5,636 bases of DNA, from positions 1-5,636 of IMG/VR virus record IMGVR_UViG_3300045988_033297; one strand, written 5' to 3'. Source of the stretch: a virus. The position numbers were made by a program, and so were the translations under genes. Of this stretch, positions 1 through 5,636 are shown one piece after another; within the stretch, counting starts at the first letter, position 1; every line of letters starts with the position of its first letter. The notes beneath the pieces are model-generated. The model was not told the origin of the DNA. It did not search any database and saw nothing but the letters and a program-made list of their open reading frames with translations.

Positions 1-99
1 GTTTTTTTTTTTTTGGTAAAATTGAACAAAAAGGAGGCGATATTGTGGACAACCGCTTTTAATCCGAACAGAAAAGAAATCATAAGAGTATACGTAGGA
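1..99. repeat. Terminal direct repeat, copy 1 (assembly overlap of a circular genome)
   Basis: Read by eye, 1-99 (G, T13, GGTAAAATTGAAC...GTATACGTAGGA) is identical to 5538-5636. The offset of 5,537 nt is the unit genome length. Confidence 0.9.
14..22 (+). promoter_or_regulatory. Possible extended -10 promoter element (TGGTAAAAT) for the 43-240 ORF
   Basis: TGGTAAAAT fits TGnTAnAAT and lies directly after the T13 tract, about 9 nt before the AAGGAGG RBS at 31-37. No convincing -35 is present in circular coordinates (TTGTGT at 5534-5539 leaves only a 14-nt spacer). Confidence 0.25.
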
Positions 100-240
100 G
101 TCGTAGAGATATGGGCGATCGAAGAACTGGCACAGGAGTACTTTGTAACGCAGGGACGAGTTATCCGGGACGCTATCAAAGTTGCTCTGAGGCACAAAGA
201 AGAGCTATACGAGCTGTTAAAGATGGATACAGAGATCTGA
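43..240 (+). CDS. Small ribbon-helix-helix-like DNA-binding protein (65 aa, TTG start)
   Basis: The ORF-track frame 13-240 has an in-frame TTG at 43, placed 5 nt after a strong AAGGAGG (31-37). The upstream TTG codons at 13 and 22 lie in or just after the terminator T-run and have no RBS. The sequence KEIIRVYVGVVEIWAIEELAQEYFVTQGRVIRDAIKVALRH fits a beta-strand/helix/turn/helix RHH pattern (ELA...G..IR.AI...L). Confidence 0.5.
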   Translation: MWTTAFNPNRKEIIRVYVGVVEIWAIEELAQEYFVTQGRVIRDAIKVALRHKEELYELLKMDTEI

Positions 241-347
241 AAAAAGCCAGAACACTCGGAGAAGCTGAAGCGATCATCCGTGAGATCTACGAAGCCAAAG
301 CAATCATCAACGAGGAGGAGCTAAAATGGCTAAAAGAGTCAAAATGA
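111..347 (+). CDS. Hypothetical protein (78 aa), possibly overprinted on the 43-240 ORF
   Basis: ATG at 111 follows AGGAG (96-100) with a 10-nt spacer. The C-terminal half (KKARTLGEAEAIIREIYEAKAIINEEELKWLKESK, nt 240-344) looks like a helical protein and covers 241-325, which no other frame explains. The N-terminal half (MGDRRTGTGVLCNAGTSYPGRYQSC) looks poor. Long chance alternative-frame ORFs do occur elsewhere in this genome. Confidence 0.25.
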   Translation: MGDRRTGTGVLCNAGTSYPGRYQSCSEAQRRAIRAVKDGYRDLKKARTLGEAEAIIREIYEAKAIINEEELKWLKESK

Positions 348-445
348 AGCCAAGGAAAGACCAGAAAGTCTTTTCCAACACAGCAAAGAAGACCAAATCC
401 ATCAACATCACGCCAAAAATCATGCGTGGTGGTACGAGACTGTAA
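326..445 (+). CDS. Small highly basic DNA-binding/packaging protein (gokushovirus ORF8-type, phiX174 J analogue), 39 aa
   Basis: Absent from the ORF track because it is too short. ATG at 326 lies 5 nt after GAGGAGGAG (312-320). The product is MAKRVKMKPRKDQKVFSNTAKKTKSINITPKIMRGGTRL, with 13 K/R and 1 acidic residue. The C-terminal MRGGxRL matches the conserved end of these proteins as I recall it. Stop TAA is at 443-445. Confidence 0.75.
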   Translation: MAKRVKMKPRKDQKVFSNTAKKTKSINITPKIMRGGTRL

Positions 446-458
446 AGGAGAAAAAACT

Positions 459-737
459 ATGATCCTGGAATACTATGCCATCAAAGACACCAAAGTCGCC
501 TTTATGAATCCGTTCATGCAGCACAACAAGGCAGAAGCCATCCGATCTTTCCGCAGCGTCCTGGCAGATGAACGCAGCGAGGCAGCCAAAAACCCGGCAG
601 ATTATGAACTCTGGTACGTTGGACAGTGGGACGACGCAACGGGCATCATGATGGGCGGTCAGCCGCAGTTTATCGAAAACGGAGTGGAGGGTTTGAAAAA
701 TGCCGAAAACCGAAGTGCACATCTGGAGTCGATTTGA
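459..737 (+). CDS. VP5: VP5-like nonstructural protein of Gokushovirinae (92 aa)
   Basis: This is ORF-track frame 426-737, but the ATG at 459 has AAGGAG (445-450) 8 nt upstream. The pattern Y.IKD.K...F..PF...N..EAIRSF......E.S....NP.DYELW.VG.WDD.TG matches the VP5 family pattern as I recall it. Confidence 0.8.
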   Translation: MILEYYAIKDTKVAFMNPFMQHNKAEAIRSFRSVLADERSEAAKNPADYELWYVGQWDDATGIMMGGQPQFIENGVEGLKNAENRSAHLESI

Positions 738-1206
738 TCGACCGGACACGATCCCAGCGCCAGAGGGCACCGGCACAGAGCCGGAGTACATGGAAGCGAT
801 CGACGAAAACGGTCACAAAACACTGAAAAAAACCGGAGAAACCGACACTTACGCCATGATCCAGGCGAGTCTGGAAGAAACCAAGATCGAGAACATCATC
901 AAACGAGCCACGCTGGGCGATCCGACCGCACTCACGCAGACAATGGGCGCATATATGGACACCACAGACATGCCAACAAGCCTGGCCGAGATGCAGAACG
1001 CCATTATCACGATCGAAAACGAATTCAACAAGCTGCCTCTCGAAACTCGTCTCAAGTTTAACCAAAGTGCAGAAAAATATATCTCTATGTACGGCTCTGA
1101 AGAATGGGCCAAAATCATGGGATATGAAAAAATTCAGCAAAATGCACAAACAAAAGCCTCAGCTGAGGCAGAGGAGATTGTGCAGAAAGGAGAAAATAAA
1201 GAATGA
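700..1206 (+). CDS. VP3: VP3 internal scaffolding protein (168 aa)
   Basis: GGAGG (686-690) lies 9 nt before the ATG. It sits immediately upstream of VP1. The sequence ...IENIIKR...GAYMDTTDMPTSLAEMQNAIITIENEFNKLPLETRLKFNQSAEKYISM... resembles the gokushovirus scaffold family. It overlaps VP5 by 38 nt and VP1 by ATGA. Confidence 0.85.
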   Translation: MPKTEVHIWSRFDRPDTIPAPEGTGTEPEYMEAIDENGHKTLKKTGETDTYAMIQASLEETKIENIIKRATLGDPTALTQTMGAYMDTTDMPTSLAEMQNAIITIENEFNKLPLETRLKFNQSAEKYISMYGSEEWAKIMGYEKIQQNAQTKASAEAEEIVQKGENKE

Positions 1207-2924
1207 ACCGAAATTCTGAAAGCCATTTCGCACAAATTCCACATGCAGACATCAGCCGATCGAAGTTCTACCGAAACTCAGACCATAAGACAACGTTCAA
1301 CGCCGGGCAGCTCATCCCGATCTACTGCGACGAAGTTCTGCCGGGAGACACACATCAGATGGACATGAGCGCACTGATCCGGATGAGCACACCGATCTTT
1401 CCGACCATGGACAATCTTTACTGCGATTTTTACTTTTTCTTCGTCCCAAACCGTCTCACCTGGATTCACTGGAAAGAATTCATGGGCGAAAACACACAGA
1501 GCTACTGGACACAACCGACTGAATACCAAATACCAGTCATTGACACAACAAAAAACAAAGAATCAAAAACAAATGGAATCGCAAACGGAAGCACCCTCGA
1601 CTACTTCGGAATACCAACCAAAACCAATGGGCTAAAAATCAATGCACTTCCACAAAGAGCATACCAACTGATCTGGAACGAATGGTTCAGAGATCAAAAC
1701 ATACAGCAGCCATGCGAAATCCCATTAGATGAAACAACAGTACATCAAGATGGAACAAGTACAGAAAAACATAACTCTGGACAACCATACAAATACTTCA
1801 TAACAGAATACGTCACATTAGCAAAAAGCGGATATGCATGCTTACCTGTCAACAAATATCACGACTACTTCACCAGCTGCCTGCCGCAACCGCAGAAAGG
1901 CGCAGCCGTTCTGCTGCCGATGAGCGGAAATGCAATCATAGGTTATGGAAACGCCGGAACCGGAAAGCTATACAACAACGAAGACTTTAATACACTCGGC
2001 TGGACCAGCACGGCAACCGGATGGAAACACGACATAAACGGAATGTCAGCAAACACAACAGCAACAAAAAACGACGGAAATATCGCATCAATCGGAACCT
2101 ATCCGACAGGAAGCGGAACAACAGAAGCAGTCAGCCTAATCGCAGACCTGGGCAAAGTCACAGGCGCAACGATCAATCAGCTCCGTCAGGCATTCCAGAT
2201 TCAGAAACTTCTGGAACGGGATGCACGAGGCGGCACAAGATACACCGAAATTCTGAAAGCACACTTCAACGTGACTTCTCCGGACTCTCGCCAGCAGCGA
2301 CCAGAGTATCTTGGTGGCTACAGAATGCCGATCAACATCACGCAGGTGGTACAGAACTCTGAAACCACAGCAACGAGTCCGCAGGGCAACACCGCAGCAT
2401 TTTCAGTAAGTGGCATGAACAAGTCAATGTTCACAAAAAGCTTTACTGAGCACGGATATATCATCGGTCTGGCAGCCGTCAGAACCGAGCATACTTACCA
2501 ACAGGGCATTGAACGCATGTGGAGCCGAAAAGGCAGATATGACTTCTACTGGCCGGAACTTGCGAATATCGGAGAACAAGCAGTGCTCAACAAAGAAATT
2601 TATGCACAGGGCACAGCGGCAGACGAAGAAGCGTTCGGCTACCAGGAGGCCTGGGCAGACTATCGGTACAAGCCGAGCCGAGTGTCAGGCGATATGCGGT
2701 CAAACTACAACCAGACGCTGGACAGCTGGCACTATGCCGACAACTACACAGAGCAACCAAAACTGTCGAGCACCTGGATGATGGAGACCATGAACAACAT
2801 CGACCGGACTCTTGCAGTTCAAAGCAGCGTAGAAGACCAGTTCATTGCAGACTTCTATTTCAAAGCACAGACCACAAGGCCGATGCCTGTCTACAGTGTA
2901 CCGGGCCTTATCGACCATCACTAA
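1203..2924 (+). CDS. VP1: VP1 major capsid protein (Microviridae F-protein family), 573 aa
   Basis: Hallmark N-terminus SHFAQIPHADISRSKF...HKTTFNAGQLIPIYCDEVLPGDT...MSTPIFPTMDNLYCDFYFFFVPNRL. Internal TINQLRQAFQIQKLLERDARGGTRYTEILKAHFNV. C-terminal RPMPVYSVPGLIDHH. Confidence 0.97.
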   Translation: MNRNSESHFAQIPHADISRSKFYRNSDHKTTFNAGQLIPIYCDEVLPGDTHQMDMSALIRMSTPIFPTMDNLYCDFYFFFVPNRLTWIHWKEFMGENTQSYWTQPTEYQIPVIDTTKNKESKTNGIANGSTLDYFGIPTKTNGLKINALPQRAYQLIWNEWFRDQNIQQPCEIPLDETTVHQDGTSTEKHNSGQPYKYFITEYVTLAKSGYACLPVNKYHDYFTSCLPQPQKGAAVLLPMSGNAIIGYGNAGTGKLYNNEDFNTLGWTSTATGWKHDINGMSANTTATKNDGNIASIGTYPTGSGTTEAVSLIADLGKVTGATINQLRQAFQIQKLLERDARGGTRYTEILKAHFNVTSPDSRQQRPEYLGGYRMPINITQVVQNSETTATSPQGNTAAFSVSGMNKSMFTKSFTEHGYIIGLAAVRTEHTYQQGIERMWSRKGRYDFYWPELANIGEQAVLNKEIYAQGTAADEEAFGYQEAWADYRYKPSRVSGDMRSNYNQTLDSWHYADNYTEQPKLSSTWMMETMNNIDRTLAVQSSVEDQFIADFYFKAQTTRPMPVYSVPGLIDHH

Positions 2925-2935
2925 TCGCCACAGAG

Positions 2936-2967
2936 GCGGCTCAGAGGCTCTCTGAGCCGCTTTTCTT
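2936..2967 (+). terminator. Rho-independent terminator after VP1
   Basis: GCGGCTCAGAG (2936-2946) pairs perfectly with CTCTGAGCCGC (2950-2960): an 11-bp GC-rich stem with a 3-nt loop, followed by TTTTCTT (2961-2967). Confidence 0.8.
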
Positions 2968-2984
2968 ATCAGGAGGAAAACTAT

Positions 2985-3821
2985 ATGGGACTCTTAGGAA
3001 CAATCGCCGGAATGGTGCTCCCAAACGTCATAAACTGGGGATTAGGACAAATCTTCGGAGGAGGAGCAAACAGCACAACCCAAGGAGCAAGCCATAGCCA
3101 GGGCGGCAGCACAACACAGAGCCAGAGCGGCACAAACGACCAATTCAATGCACAGCAAGCACAGCTCAACCGAGACTATCAGACCATGAGCCAGGCGATC
3201 CAGGGCAATTACAACATGAAAAGCATGATCATGAATATGGGCTACAACACCATGGGAGCCATCATGCAAGGCGTGTACAACGGAATCAGCCAAAAAGCAG
3301 CCATGAACTACAACTCAGCTGAAGCAGCAGCAAACAGAGCTTGGCAAACCGAAATGAGCAACACAGCCTATCAGAGAGCTGTGCAAGACTTAAAAGCCGC
3401 AGGACTTAACCCGATCTTAGCAGCACTTCACGGAGGAGCCGTCACAGGATCAGGAGCATACGGCAGCTCAGGAGCCAGCACGATCGGAGCACCAAGCACA
3501 AGCGCAGCAAGCATCTCAGCCATGCCAGGCACAGCAACACCAAGCAGCCAATGGAGCTGGTCAAAGGGTTCCAGCTGGAACGAAAGCACGGCCTATAACA
3601 TGGGCGAATCCGTAATGCGATACTATGCCGATCCAAACAACAGCGCAAAAAACCTCAAAGAAACAGGAGACAAAGTTGTAAAAGCCGGCAAAGAAGCAGG
3701 CGAGCAAATCAAAGACGCATACAAATACTCAAGCCCGGCAAACAAAATGAATCGCAACTCAGCAAACATCAACGGCAAAGGATATACAAGCCCAGGCAAC
3801 GGAGCAGGCAGAACAAAGTAA
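2985..3821 (+). CDS. VP2: VP2 DNA pilot / minor capsid protein (278 aa)
   Basis: AGGAGG (2971-2976) lies 8 nt before the ATG. It has a hydrophobic N-terminus (LLGTIAGMVLPNVINWGLGQIFGG), S/T/G/Q/N-rich low-complexity tracts, and the pilot-protein signature AWQTEMSNTAYQRAVQDLKAAGLNPILAA (nt 3339-3425). Confidence 0.9.
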   Translation: MGLLGTIAGMVLPNVINWGLGQIFGGGANSTTQGASHSQGGSTTQSQSGTNDQFNAQQAQLNRDYQTMSQAIQGNYNMKSMIMNMGYNTMGAIMQGVYNGISQKAAMNYNSAEAAANRAWQTEMSNTAYQRAVQDLKAAGLNPILAALHGGAVTGSGAYGSSGASTIGAPSTSAASISAMPGTATPSSQWSWSKGSSWNESTAYNMGESVMRYYADPNNSAKNLKETGDKVVKAGKEAGEQIKDAYKYSSPANKMNRNSANINGKGYTSPGNGAGRTK

Positions 3822-3850
3822 TTGACATACATCAAATAAAAGTGTATAAT
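3822..3850 (+). promoter_or_regulatory. Consensus sigma70/sigmaA promoter P1 (TTGACA-17 nt-TATAAT) for the RHH-rep unit
   Basis: TTGACA at 3822-3827, an exact 17-nt spacer, TATAAT at 3845-3850, with TG immediately 5' of the -10. It starts the nucleotide after the VP2 stop and is nearly identical to the block at 5286-5315. Confidence 0.8.
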
Positions 3851-3871
3851 AACGCATAGGAGGTGTATGTT

Positions 3872-4039
3872 ATGAAATGCACAGTAAGAAGAATCAATGT
3901 GAATCTCACAGAGAAAGAAAACGAAGCTCTCAAACGAACGGCAAAAGCCATGGGTGAAAAAGAAAGCGAGATCGTACGCAAAGCAATCATGAGTTTTACC
4001 AGCAATGGTAAAGATTTACAGGGAAATAATGGTCAGTAA
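3872..4039 (+). CDS. CopG/Arc/MetJ-type ribbon-helix-helix transcriptional regulator (55 aa)
   Basis: Absent from the ORF track. AGGAGG (3858-3863) lies 8 nt before the ATG at 3872; stop TAA is at 4037-4039. The product is MKCTVRRINVNLTEKENEALKRTAKAMGEKESEIVRKAIMSFTSNGKDLQGNNGQ. RINVNL (strand), EKENEALKRTAKAMG (helix A) and EKESEIVRKAIMSF (helix B) form a textbook RHH pattern. Confidence 0.75.
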   Translation: MKCTVRRINVNLTEKENEALKRTAKAMGEKESEIVRKAIMSFTSNGKDLQGNNGQ

Positions 4040-4065
4040 ATAGGAACCGTTCGCGGCATCGCTGT

Positions 4066-4107
4066 CACCTAGCCCCCTTACATCAAGTAGGGCTCGGGGG
4101 CTAGGTG
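4066..4107 (+). other. Perfect 12-bp GC-rich stem-loop between the RHH gene and rep (candidate origin or regulatory hairpin)
   Basis: CACCTAGCCCCC (4066-4077) is the exact reverse complement of GGGGGCTAGGTG (4096-4107). The 18-nt loop TTACATCAAGTAGGGCTC contains TACATCAA (4079-4086). There is no T-tract afterwards, so it is not a canonical terminator. The rep RBS begins 4 nt downstream. Confidence 0.7.
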
Positions 4108-4120
4108 CCAGGGGGAGGAG

Positions 4121-5161
4121 GTGAAGACCGATTTGGGCTGTAAATTTCCAATTGTGCAAGACACAAAAACAGGCAGATTTTTGAAAGAGTACGAGGGAAA
4201 ACTTTACTACAAGTGGAACGACTATGACGGTAAATCGACAAACGCAATCATCACAGATGAACGCTACCGTCTCATACCGTGCGGTAGGTGTACCGAGTGC
4301 CGATTAGCGTACTCGAGAGAGTGGGCAAACCGCTGTGTACTCGAATCACTACTCTACAAGTCGAACTGGTTCATAACACTGACTTACAACCCTGAGCAGA
4401 TTCCAACACTAAGGCTCGATACAGGTGAACTGTACAGAGGAGGTGTGCAAGAAGTACAAAATGGTAAAGTGTTAGTGTCTAACACACTGTTCCATGACGA
4501 TGTGCAAAAATTCCTCAAAAAACTGAGATTCCACCTCGCAAAGGCTGGAGAACCAGAAATCCGATACTACATGTGCGGAGAGTATGGCAGCACAACACAA
4601 CGGCCACACTACCACATGATCGTCTACAATCTGAATGTGCCTGATCTTGAGTTCTACAAGCTTAACGAACTACATCAACCTTACTTTCAAAGCGAATGGC
4701 TTGAAAAAATGTGGGGACATGGGTTTGTAACACTCGGAGAAGTAAACTGGAATACCTGCGCATACGTGGCAAGGTACATCATGAAAAAAGTGAAAGGAGA
4801 TAAAGCAGAAGAATTTTATAAAAGCATCGGAAAAACACCAGAATATACAAGAATGAGTTTAAAACCAGGAATAGGAGCAAAATACTATGAACTGAATAAA
4901 GAACAAATCTATAAATTTGATCAAATCATCATACCAGGAAAACAAGCAAAAAAAGTACAGCCATCAAAATATTTCGACAAGCTGTATGATATAGACAATC
5001 CAGAAAGGATGCAGGAAATCAAAAAAGCACGTGAAAAAAATGCACGCCTTGCTCAGCAGCTCAAATTAAGCAAAACCACAAAGGAACTGTGGGAACAGCT
5101 TAAAATAGAGCACGAAGCCAAACAAGACGCATACAAAAAACTTATAAGACCGCTAGAATAG
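4121..5161 (+). CDS. VP4: VP4 replication initiator, HUH rolling-circle endonuclease (346 aa from GTG 4121; alternative TTG start at 4133)
   Basis: RCR motif 1 is FITLTY (aa 84-89). HUH motif 2 is RPHYHMIVY (nt 4601-4627). Motif 3 is AYVARYIMKK with Tyr215 and Tyr219 (nt 4763-4777). A Cys cluster CGRCTEC lies at aa 54-60. The G-rich RBS GGGGGAGGAGG (4111-4121) abuts the GTG. A TTG at 4133 would give MGCKFP..., resembling the typical M.C..P N-terminus of VP4. Confidence 0.93.
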   Translation: MKTDLGCKFPIVQDTKTGRFLKEYEGKLYYKWNDYDGKSTNAIITDERYRLIPCGRCTECRLAYSREWANRCVLESLLYKSNWFITLTYNPEQIPTLRLDTGELYRGGVQEVQNGKVLVSNTLFHDDVQKFLKKLRFHLAKAGEPEIRYYMCGEYGSTTQRPHYHMIVYNLNVPDLEFYKLNELHQPYFQSEWLEKMWGHGFVTLGEVNWNTCAYVARYIMKKVKGDKAEEFYKSIGKTPEYTRMSLKPGIGAKYYELNKEQIYKFDQIIIPGKQAKKVQPSKYFDKLYDIDNPERMQEIKKAREKNARLAQQLKLSKTTKELWEQLKIEHEAKQDAYKKLIRPLE

Positions 5162-5168
5162 CTGAATA

Positions 5169-5212
5169 AGGGCGCAACACGGAATCTGACCTCCACGTTG
5201 CGCCCTGCTTTT
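5169..5212 (+). terminator. Probable terminator after rep (10-bp stem, large loop, short T-tract)
   Basis: AGGGCGCAAC (5169-5178) pairs with GTTGCGCCCT (5197-5206). The loop is 18 nt, followed by GCTTTT (5207-5212). The large loop and short T-run lower confidence. Confidence 0.45.
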
Positions 5213-5214
5213 CA

Positions 5215-5231
5215 TCGGCATCCAATGCCGA
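5215..5231 (+). other. Small perfect hairpin TCGGCAT-CCA-ATGCCGA
   Basis: 7-bp stem (5215-5221 with 5225-5231) and a 3-nt loop. It is nested inside an alternative pairing GCCCTGC (5202-5208) with GCAGGGC (5234-5240). Confidence 0.6.
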
Positions 5232-5246
5232 GCGCAGGGCCTACAG

Positions 5247-5263
5247 ATAAAATAGCATAAAAT
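5247..5263 (+). repeat. Tandem ATAAAAT-AGC-ATAAAAT (10-nt phase), UP-element-like A/T block upstream of P2
   Basis: ATAAAAT occurs at 5247-5253 and 5257-5263, one helical turn apart, 23-39 nt upstream of the -35 box at 5286. Confidence 0.4.
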
Positions 5264-5285
5264 GATGTATATTTCAAGAAAACAG

Positions 5286-5314
5286 TTGACATACATCAAA
5301 TCTAGATGTATAAT
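5286..5314 (+). promoter_or_regulatory. Consensus sigma70/sigmaA promoter P2 (TTGACA-17 nt-TATAAT) for the acidic small ORF
   Basis: TTGACA at 5286-5291, a 17-nt spacer, TATAAT at 5309-5314. The perfect 7-nt inverted repeat ATACATC (5291-5297) / GATGTAT (5305-5311) bridges the -35 and -10 boxes. Confidence 0.8.
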
Positions 5315-5340
5315 AGAATCAGAAAGAAAGGAGAATAACA

Positions 5341-5502
5341 ATGAAAAGTTACTATGAAGAACATGTAAAAGATTGTGCAGCAGCTCTTTACGACGGCGGA
5401 TGGAGAAGCACAGACAGAAACGAAATACAAAAAGAATACAACATGGACGATGAGTGGACAGATGCAATCTGCGAAGAACTAAAAAAATACGAACAACAAT
5501 AA
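5341..5502 (+). CDS. Acidic small protein of unknown function (53 aa)
   Basis: Absent from the ORF track. AAGGAG (5328-5333) lies 7 nt before the ATG at 5341; stop TAA is at 5500-5502. The product is MKSYYEEHVKDCAAALYDGGWRSTDRNEIQKEYNMDDEWTDAICEELKKYEQQ, with 14 D/E versus 7 K/R. It is flanked by its own consensus promoter and a strong terminator. Confidence 0.65.
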   Translation: MKSYYEEHVKDCAAALYDGGWRSTDRNEIQKEYNMDDEWTDAICEELKKYEQQ

Positions 5503-5511
5503 GAATACTAC

Positions 5512-5551
5512 AAAACACAGGACAAAAAAAGTCTTGTGTTTTTTTTTTTTT
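5512..5551 (+). terminator. Strong rho-independent terminator (stem, A7 loop, T13 tail)
   Basis: CACAGGAC (5516-5523) pairs with GTCTTGTG (5531-5538): 8 bp with one G-U. The loop is A7 (5524-5530). The flanking A-run (5512-5515) can extend the stem. T13 lies at 5539-5551 and is duplicated at 2-14. Confidence 0.85.
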
Positions 5552-5636
5552 GGTAAAATTGAACAAAAAGGAGGCGATATTGTGGACAACCGCTTTTAAT
5601 CCGAACAGAAAAGAAATCATAAGAGTATACGTAGGA
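5538..5636. repeat. Terminal direct repeat, copy 2 (same sequence as 1-99)
   Basis: Identical to 1-99 by eye. It contains a duplicate of the RBS and the first 19 codons of the 43-240 ORF (5580-5636), which is an artefact of linearisation and not a second gene. Confidence 0.9.

Follow-up and report, generated by a model that had tools for sequence, protein, structure and literature searches.

A predicted ribbon-helix-helix regulator gene upstream of rep, and a phiX174-like loop on the non-coding strand, in a gokushovirus-like microvirus

In the rolling-circle plasmid pMV158 (pLS1), a small ribbon-helix-helix (RHH) protein, CopG, is encoded directly upstream of the initiator RepB, and CopG contacts about 50 bp of DNA, including the -35 and -10 boxes, with a 13-bp symmetric element (PMC2724298). 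RepB belongs to the Rep_2 family (PF01719; PMC5714925). Other RHH genes lie beside an HUH endonuclease and its hairpin or nick region, as for NikA (R64), TraY (F), and TrwA (R388). The RHH accessory proteins of HUH relaxases often autoregulate their own operons. To our knowledge, microviruses have no regulator of their own: they are the textbook minimal phages and are thought to depend wholly on the host's transcription signals. Here we describe a microvirus locus that encodes a 55-amino-acid (aa) protein, with a predicted RHH fold, just upstream of the rolling-circle initiator Rep (VP4). It lies in IMG/VR record IMGVR_UViG_3300045988_033297, of which we analyzed positions 1 to 5,636 (5,636 nucleotides (nt); hereafter, the window). 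We think it probable, with some reservations, that positions 3822-5215 are an early replication operon in which the RHH protein represses its own promoter, P1, as well as a twin promoter, P2, and that the hairpin between the RHH gene and rep is an origin-type stem-loop that is separate from this circuit.

Like copG-repB, the locus has an RHH gene of about 50 codons directly upstream of an HUH initiator gene, apparently co-transcribed with it from a single strong promoter that has repeat elements over its core, and a hairpin (the putative origin) is close to the operon. An initial annotation of this stretch, made from the sequence alone, had drawn this parallel, and it holds for the promoter, the RHH gene, and rep. 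It does not hold for the role of the hairpin, the antisense RNA, or the family of Rep. First, Rep is VP4-type, with a YxxxY motif, and since it belongs to PF23343 rather than to RepB's family, the resemblance is an analogy and not membership. Second, we found no counterpart of antisense RNA II, and the hairpin is placed after the RHH gene and ahead of rep, not upstream of the promoter. Third, the candidate operator boxes are GTGTA-type at a spacing of 13-21 bp, and this is a lytic-type virus with capsid genes. The proposed circuit would also resemble Cro-type shut-off and Arc and Mnt of phage P22, in that a small phage RHH protein turns down strong early promoters. Unlike Arc and Mnt, which belong to the immunity region of a temperate double-stranded DNA phage, its target would be the initiator operon of a 5.5-kb single-stranded DNA (ssDNA) phage. 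And unlike the RHH partners of relaxases, it has no conjugation machinery, and the hairpin functions in many relatives without an RHH gene.

The predicted RHH gene, its promoter, and rep

The elements of the locus and of the region downstream are listed here. Related loci are given our own numbers (L001 and so on) where they need to be told apart.

3822-3850, + strand: P1, sigma-70/sigma-A promoter (TTGACA 3822-3827, 17-nt spacer, TATAAT 3845-3850)
3827-3833: candidate operator box ATACATC, inverted, between the P1 -35 and -10 boxes
3841-3847: candidate operator box AGTGTAT, overlapping the P1 -10 box
3862-3868: candidate operator box GGTGTAT, overlapping the Shine-Dalgarno (SD) sequence and the +5 to +12 region
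3872-4039, + strand: 55-aa RHH protein (MKCTVRRINVNLTEKE...), SD AGGAGG at 3858-3863
4062-4111: stem-loop, with arms at 4062-4077 and 4096-4111 and an 18-nt loop at 4078-4095 (TTACATCAAGTAGGGCTC), identified as an inverted repeat and by folding
4133-5161, + strand: Rep/VP4, HUH rolling-circle initiator, SD GGAGGTGA at 4117-4124; alternative start GTG at 4121
5169-5215, + strand: terminator-like hairpin after rep, an inverted repeat (AGGGCGCAAC...GTTGCGCCCT, then GCTTTTC), kept in L003 and L007
5286-5314, + strand: P2, twin promoter (12/12 consensus positions), with perfect palindrome arms at 5291-5297 and 5305-5311
5341-5502, + strand: 53-aa acidic open reading frame (ORF) behind P2, without a family match
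5512-5552, + strand: strong intrinsic terminator (12-bp stem and T-run) that closes the P2 unit
5551-5559, repeated at 14-22, + strand: extended -10 promoter TGGTAAAAT, on the T-run of the terminator, with no -35 box

Because a sequence-profile search of the PDB with the RHH alignment gave no meaningful match, a comparison of folds was needed instead. An AlphaFold2 (AF2) model of the 55-aa protein, run with four sequences, has a strand-helix-helix topology (strands at residues 2-5 and 8-11, helices at 14-27 and 31-44, and about 10 residues after helix B). Its predicted local distance difference test (pLDDT) score is 77.7 overall and about 90 in the helices. When the model was compared to the PDB with Foldseek, the roughly 50 best matches were all RHH proteins, including the TacA and VapB antitoxins, CopG, PutA, ParG, Arc, NikA, and AmrZ. 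The best match was the TacA2 antitoxin, and the CopG structures (1ea4, 2cpg, and 1b01) had template-modelling (TM) scores of 0.74-0.76, normalised to the target. Among viral proteins, the named structural matches were CopG-, Arc-, and repressor-type proteins of tailed phages, and none were from microviruses. So the fold that the initial annotation had read from the sequence pattern is supported by the model. The 55-aa ORF is also under purifying selection, with a ratio of nonsynonymous to synonymous substitution rates (dN/dS) of 0.12-0.69 against four relatives. R7, N9, and N11, the predicted DNA-facing residues of the beta-strand, are invariant among 12 diverse members of the family.

The matches to sequence families are weaker. 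In Pfam, all of them are below the cut-offs: DUF6290 (2.8e-4, 21.4 bits vs. a cut-off of 27), RHH_1, and a NikA-like family (E = 0.013). Sub-threshold matches in PHROG are described as "transcriptional repressor" and "Arc-like". Beyond the RHH fold, we detect no sequence homology to CopG (23-25% identity over about 42 residues). Similarly, Arc is among the structural matches, but the match to the Arc-like repressors of PHROG is weak and the sequence similarity is not significant. As for other members of the family, one matches RHH_1 at 6.4e-6, another matches RHH_3 at 2e-4, and one was annotated by the Joint Genome Institute (JGI) as an Arc/MetJ-type regulator.

Might the protein be an antitoxin-like or host-directed factor (RelB- or ParD-type, anti-defence, or a regulator of host genes) instead of a regulator of phage promoters? 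Its best profile matches are antitoxin-type, namely DUF6290 and the NCBIfam RelB antitoxin (0.0015, 18.8 bits vs. a cut-off of 50), and so is its best structural match, TacA2. On the other hand, every profile match is far below its cut-off, and no toxin gene adjoins, as the neighbours are VP2 and Rep. Furthermore, the 55-aa protein is a DNA-binding domain only, without a toxin-binding tail, and the repeat boxes that are conserved in the promoter of its gene speak for autoregulation. We consider this explanation to be very unlikely.

The initial annotation suggested looking for a small ORF upstream of VP4 in other Microviridae, and we did find homologues of the 55-aa protein there. Searches for similar loci with the single protein returned only the nearest relative, and a direct search found four close homologues, on human-gut contigs of 5.3-5.7 kb. 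A profile search found at least 140 clusters of homologues, with lengths of 53-125 aa, and nearly all of these are on contigs of at most 5.9 kb. Comparing the protein to GenBank phages with tblastn gave three weak matches, all of which are unannotated, lie between VP2 and VP4, and are from pig-gut Microviridae. At all of the loci whose context we read (about 35), the order is VP2, consensus promoter, RHH gene, hairpin, and Rep.

P1, which the initial annotation had placed upstream of the 55-aa ORF, matches the consensus at 12 of 12 positions. There are just two such perfect sites in the genome, P1 and P2, and by our own estimate about 0.002 per genome would be expected by chance. Across about 30 related genomes, P1 matches at 10-12 of the 12 positions. 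The inverted repeat that was said to bridge the -35 and -10 boxes is present, but within P1 of the window just 5-bp arms pair (ATACA at 3827-3831 with TGTAT at 3843-3847). The perfect 7-bp form, ATACATC-N7-GATGTAT, is found in P1 of two relatives (L001 and L007) and in P2 of the window. In P2 of L007, both arms are intact and 4 of the 7 spacer bases have changed. More broadly, in the window's lineage the arms ATACATC and (G/A)(A/G)TGTAT are kept while the intervening 7-8 nt vary, and 6 of the 8 RTGTAT sites in the genome are at P1 and P2.

A sister clade has a different arrangement of similar boxes. A block from about -17 to +22, GGTGTATAnTATGrGTGTAnnAAyCryACACyT, is conserved among 23 distinct promoters of this clade; within it, the invariant elements are GGTGTATA, TATG, GTGTA, and ACAC, with variable positions in between. 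Its substitutions follow no codon pattern, which places the conservation at the DNA level. GTGTA-type boxes recur every 12-13 bp or so over about 50 bp of promoter, a layout reminiscent of Pcr, where four CopG dimers occupy about 50 bp (PMC2724298). The best reading of the GTGTA/ATACA-type boxes at P1 and P2 is that they are putative RHH operators. We rejected two other ideas about the block. First, we take it to have TGTATATTATG in common with dif of E. coli, but the flanking arms do not match those of a dif-like site for XerCD. Second, the conserved ATGrGTGTA after the -10 box might have been a mini-ORF, but it has no codon pattern and no SD, and it is too near the -10 box to be on the P1 transcript.

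We also noticed an 8-mer, TACATCAA, that occurs five times on the + strand (vs. 0.16 expected) and never on the - strand. The copies are at 1741 (VP1), 3828 (P1), 4079 (the hairpin loop), 4671 (rep), and 5292 (P2). The copy in rep is conserved in L003, L004, and L010, and the copy in VP1 is found in the window only.

The gene directly downstream does encode an HUH Rep, as the initial annotation stated. It matches PF23343 (REP_ORF2-G2P) at 3e-21 and phrog_942 at 1e-108, and no other families. The HUH motif is HYHMIVY (4607-4627) and the two-tyrosine YxxxY motif is YVARYIMKK (4763-4789). Judging from the sequence, its start codon is most likely TTG 4133 rather than GTG 4121; in relatives, the ATG that was picked for rep by gene callers is preceded by codons that are conserved with synonymous changes. 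A scan for promoters and terminators found neither in the interval that separates rep from the RHH gene, so the locus is best read as an autoregulated operon of these two genes. The hairpin at 5169-5215 was not called by a strict terminator scan; still, it is probably the end of the P1 operon.

Over 40 nt, P2 shares 80% identity with P1, with which it is probably co-regulated. The P2 cassette is present in L010/L014 and in L007, which encodes a 48-aa homologue of the 53-aa ORF, and it is absent from L003-L006. Given this patchy presence, it seems to be an accessory unit that was recently gained or lost. The extended -10 promoter that follows is likely to be a constitutive promoter for the block of structural genes: TGnTAAAAT is conserved in L003 and L007, and TGGTAAAAT itself is also found in L017.

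The hairpin between the RHH gene and rep

The hairpin has a stem of 12-16 bp and is stable on both strands: its predicted folding energy is -20.1 kcal/mol for the + strand and, for the - strand, -17.2 kcal/mol (z = -4.99). Within the window's lineage the hairpin is invariant, even where the flanking sequences diverge. In the sister clade, the sequence of the stem is wholly unlike the window's, and the apical loop ATCAAG(A/T)(A/G)G is kept. There, 10 of the 18 pairs in the stem covary and 93.9% of cells in the alignment are paired, values that 0 of 500 shuffles reached. The same stem-loop is the strongest or near-strongest perfect-stem hairpin in the genomes of Chp2, SpV4, and phiMH2K; for comparison, the loop on the minus strand of phiMH2K is TTACAACAAGTAGGGTCC, and that on the plus strand of the window is TTACATCAAGTAGGGCTC. 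In these reference phages, the element is at:

L146: 2904-2941
L147: 512-544
L148: 3296-3335

The hairpin is not tied to the RHH gene. In L144, a human-gut gokushovirus without the RHH gene, it lies directly between VP2 and VP4. In L143 it lies upstream of VP2, and a peptidase-bearing clade has it shortly downstream of Rep. From this distribution, we take the hairpin to be a pan-gokushovirus cis element that is outside the control circuit.

What might it do? On the minus strand, the loop reads GAGCCCTACTTG/ATGTAA, where the slash corresponds to the cleavage position in phiX174. If we align the minus-strand loop (CTACTTGATGTAA) to phiX174 (CAACTTGATATTA), 10 of 13 positions are identical and the cleavage motif ACTTG/AT is present; put another way, the loop's CTACTTG/ATGTAA corresponds to CAACTTG/ATATTAATAAC in the viral-strand origin of phiX174 (cccccaacttg/atatt, with rep_origin annotated at 4306). 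In the classical phages, the loop on the coding strand is CTACTTGAT or TTACTTGTT, which is the cleavage sequence of the phiX174 gene A protein (gpA). A motif at the apex of a stem-loop next to rep is also found in CRESS-DNA viruses, whose circular ssDNA genomes encode a Rep. In contrast to the window, the origin of phiX174 is inside gene A, has no hairpin, and belongs to a coding-sense viral strand. On these comparisons, the hairpin is most likely the rolling-circle origin, with predicted nicking at the loop. The putative nick would be on the minus strand, between the complements of 4084 and 4083.

Alternatively, the hairpin could be a complementary-strand origin (single-strand origin (sso) or primosome type), a packaging signal, or some other ssDNA element rather than the site that Rep nicks. 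Its structure is strongly conserved and its loop is sequence-specific, which would suit such roles. Also, conserved hairpins near Rep, with compensatory changes, occur in other clades of microviruses; they have no firmly assigned function and have tentatively been tied to negative-strand synthesis (PMC9865509). Against this, the loop matches the sequence that gpA cleaves, and the hairpin adjoins rep in most genomes. So we think it unlikely that the hairpin's role lies elsewhere, and any function that is read from ssDNA would still imply that this clade packages the opposite strand.

Two further roles can be set aside. As an intrinsic terminator or attenuator, the hairpin lacks a U-run: what comes after the stem is GGGGGAGGAGG (+ strand) or CAGCGATGCC (- strand), and the terminator scan was negative. 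As a target for antisense RNA, it has no antisense promoter and no match in Rfam, and it occurs without the RHH gene and away from Rep. The initial annotation had pointed to the antisense RNA of pMV158-family plasmids, which targets the region just before repB, but here we found no promoter or terminator on the minus strand in 4040-4130.

This bears on whether the locus could be a literal pMV158-type copy-control system (repressor, antisense RNA, and attenuating hairpin) that maintains the phage as a plasmid-like carrier replicon. An RHH gene and then rep behind one operator-bearing promoter does resemble copG-repB (PMC2724298), and CopG is among the best structural matches. But besides the negative results for 4040-4130, for a U-run on either strand, and in Rfam, Rep is of PF23343 and not Rep_2/PF01719, and the genome has a full set of lytic structural genes. 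The related suggestion of persistent or carrier-state replication also found no support: there are no integrase or partition genes among the genes examined, and no copy in 185,579 species genomes. There is also no evidence of integration from L016, the only long contig (48 kb, metagenomic), where one near-complete copy of a related microvirus (6174-11856) adjoins genes of bacterial or plasmid type (FtsX/ABC transporter, HTH_3, ParM-like). An Illumina adapter (AGATCGGAAGAGCACACGT) forms the end of this contig, so it is probably an assembly chimera, and we rejected it as a prophage. Overall, we would be very surprised if the locus were a copy-control system of this kind.

The RHH gene does keep close to the hairpin: it is always within about 250 nt upstream of it, even in L143. 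Further gokushoviruses in GenBank have divergent RHH-like ORFs, hypothetical or unannotated, that adjoin the same hairpin. For example:

L143 (OM869663), 1828-2267: two tandem RHH-like ORFs, then the hairpin, VP2, and Rep
L142 (KT264797), 2653-3090: divergent RHH-like ORF beside the hairpin

The annotated start codon of VP4 in KT264797 is inside the hairpin and is probably wrong.

The proximity of the RHH gene to the hairpin raises another alternative, namely that the RHH protein is mainly an accessory factor for the origin, which binds beside the hairpin and aids or gates nicking by Rep, with repression of P1 being secondary or absent. In L143 the gene stays near the hairpin although VP2 parts the hairpin from rep. 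There are also the weak NikA-like match in Pfam and a viral structural match that is named NikA, and in the window's lineage TACATCAA is common to P1, P2, and the hairpin loop. However, promoter and loop do not have it in common in the sister clade. The hairpin also works without the RHH protein in L144, in the peptidase-bearing clade, and in 74 of 74 gokushoviruses with the loop in the classical orientation (described below), and the conserved boxes are on core promoter elements, which is typical of repressors. An accessory role at the origin seems improbable to us as the main function; as a secondary possibility, the protein may act there in addition to repressing P1 and P2.

The proposed operon and the packaged strand

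We infer DNA binding, repression, co-transcription, and nicking from the arrangement of these elements, as follows. The host's RNA polymerase would fire strongly from P1, and the first product would be the RHH protein. A dimer or higher oligomer would bind the boxes that overlap the -35/-10 spacer, the -10 box, and the transcript start, and likewise at P2. Binding would shut off the synthesis of the RHH protein itself, of Rep, and of the accessory ORF behind P2. The outcome would be a burst of initiator and then negative feedback on the dosage of Rep, with a logic like that of CopG-RepB or of Cro-like early shut-off. The structural genes would stay on via the extended -10 promoter (the copy at 14-22), and the hairpin loop would present the phiX174-like CTACTTG/AT to Rep.

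Several observations weigh against this reading. The Foldseek E-values are all above 0.3, as expected of a 55-aa query, and the RHH_1 match has 15.8 bits vs. a gathering cut-off of 20.5. The spacing of the boxes is unlike the one-helical-turn spacing of classical RHH operators. The position of the boxes depends on the lineage: they are between the -35 and -10 boxes in the window's lineage and downstream of the -10 box in the sister clade. Read-through from VP2 is possible, so P1 need not be the sole source of rep mRNA. Finally, the phiX174-like motif is on the non-coding strand, so that reading the hairpin as an origin requires either antisense packaging or cleavage of another strand.

This last point deserves more attention. 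In the window, CTACTTG/AT is on the strand that is complementary to all of the genes, and in Chp2, SpV4, and phiMH2K the motif is on the coding strand, opposite to the window. We know of no characterised microvirus with an origin motif on the non-coding strand. To see how common each orientation is, consider 105 contigs of microvirus size that carry GTCACCTAG-N-ATCAAG. The window's orientation was found in 31 of these (4.0-6.2 kb, mean 5.2 kb), with an AT skew of the coding strand of +0.28 to +0.49. The other 74, of about 4.5 kb, have the classical orientation, with an AT skew of -0.30 to +0.28. Because the orientation of the loop is fixed within each class, it must be functionally important. 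The RHH family was found only in the group with the inverted orientation and in 0 of 74 scanned gokushoviruses with the classical orientation, in a sampling that is biased. RHH regulators are also absent from the annotations of Chp2 and phiMH2K. So the initial annotation was right that a transcriptional regulator is unusual for a microvirus, and we did not find one in the literature that we searched either.

Should Rep nick within the loop, or should the loop be some other element that is read from ssDNA, then this clade would package the antisense strand. The base composition is consistent with this. On the coding strand, the window is 36.6% A and 17.3% T, and four-fold degenerate sites of VP1 are 46% A vs. 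11% T. An A-rich coding strand fits a T-rich packaged strand, and AT skew separates the two orientation classes. All of the sampled relatives with the same orientation of the hairpin share this extreme asymmetry of A over T. However, the GC skew does not fit a simple deamination model, and phiMH2K does not fit either, which also counts against our reading. We therefore rejected base composition as proof of which strand is packaged and kept it as supportive only.

Taken further, there may be a large animal-gut clade in which Rep nicks the template strand, antisense DNA is encapsidated, and the RHH protein clears P1 so that replication can start. Rolling-circle replication would then run head-on against transcription, and P1 would fire straight through the origin until repression by the RHH protein cleared it. 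We offer this as a tentative idea that is more likely to be wrong than right.

Genome setting and meaning for Microviridae

With its terminal redundancy of 99 nt, the window represents a complete genome, a circle of 5,537 bp. All of its recognisable genes are on the + strand, in the order 39-aa basic protein, VP5/ORF5, VP3, VP1, VP2, 55-aa ORF, Rep/VP4, and 53-aa ORF. The genes that have not been described above and that match known families are:

VP5/ORF5, + strand: PF20577 at 4e-24
VP3, + strand: scaffold protein of the Chlamydia-phage type, PF09675 at 3e-33
VP1, + strand: major capsid protein (F-type), PF02305 at 7e-172
VP2, + strand: pilot protein, phrog_8742; its stop codon (3819-3821) abuts the -35 box of P1

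With its capsid, scaffold, VP5, VP2, and VP4 proteins, and a circular genome within the range of about 4.5-6 kb, the virus is a gokushovirus-like gut member of the Microviridae. In a megablast search with the whole genome, the nearest GenBank phage records match at the DNA level in fragments of VP1 only. The sigma-A-type consensus promoters, and a strong GGAGG SD in front of almost all genes, point to a host of the Firmicutes type and not to Bacteroidetes. Our scans of the species genomes found no host match.

Two other features of the genome may be of interest. First, directly after VP1 and ahead of VP2 there is a terminator-like hairpin at 2936-2965 (GGCTCAGAGGCTCTCTGAGCC and then GCTTTTCTT), which is possibly an attenuator that sets the ratio of capsid to pilot protein. 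Second, two ORFs overlap near the beginning of the window, at 43-240 (65 aa) and 111-347 (78 aa); both are missing in L007. Gene callers annotate only the 78-aa ORF in relatives, yet relative to L003, the changes in the overlap are synonymous in the 65-aa frame, which is conserved there; conservation of the 78-aa frame is limited to the part downstream of 240. The 65-aa product, a candidate second RHH protein, looks RHH-like in sequence. It has no match in Pfam or NCBIfam, comparing it to the RHH family with hhalign gave a probability of 24%, and a single-sequence AF2 run gave a low-confidence model with two helices.

In the open-access full text that we searched, no paper ties Microviridae to RHH proteins, to CopG, or to a transcription regulator, and descriptions in subscription journals are possible. 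Neither an RHH regulator nor the hairpin comes up in papers on PhiCA82, on proviruses of Bacteroidetes, or on the resurrected gokushovirus of E. coli. A global survey of microviruses reported only methyltransferase and lysis/peptidase genes as accessory genes (PMC9239249).

The arrangement of RHH gene, promoter, and rep is more general than the initial annotation supposed, and the RHH gene is unannotated in three GenBank microvirus records that encode it. The module also offers compact promoter, operator, and repressor parts. If our reading is correct, then a conserved, virus-encoded RHH protein with matching boxes would add temporal or dosage control of Rep to the Microviridae. The inverted origin is the most surprising feature. 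A hairpin whose orientation is specific to the lineage is a landmark for orienting and annotating metagenomic microvirus genomes. And if antisense packaging does occur, this major gut clade would be the first negative-sense lineage of microviruses, which would affect strand-specific quantification of viromes and models of mutation bias in ssDNA.

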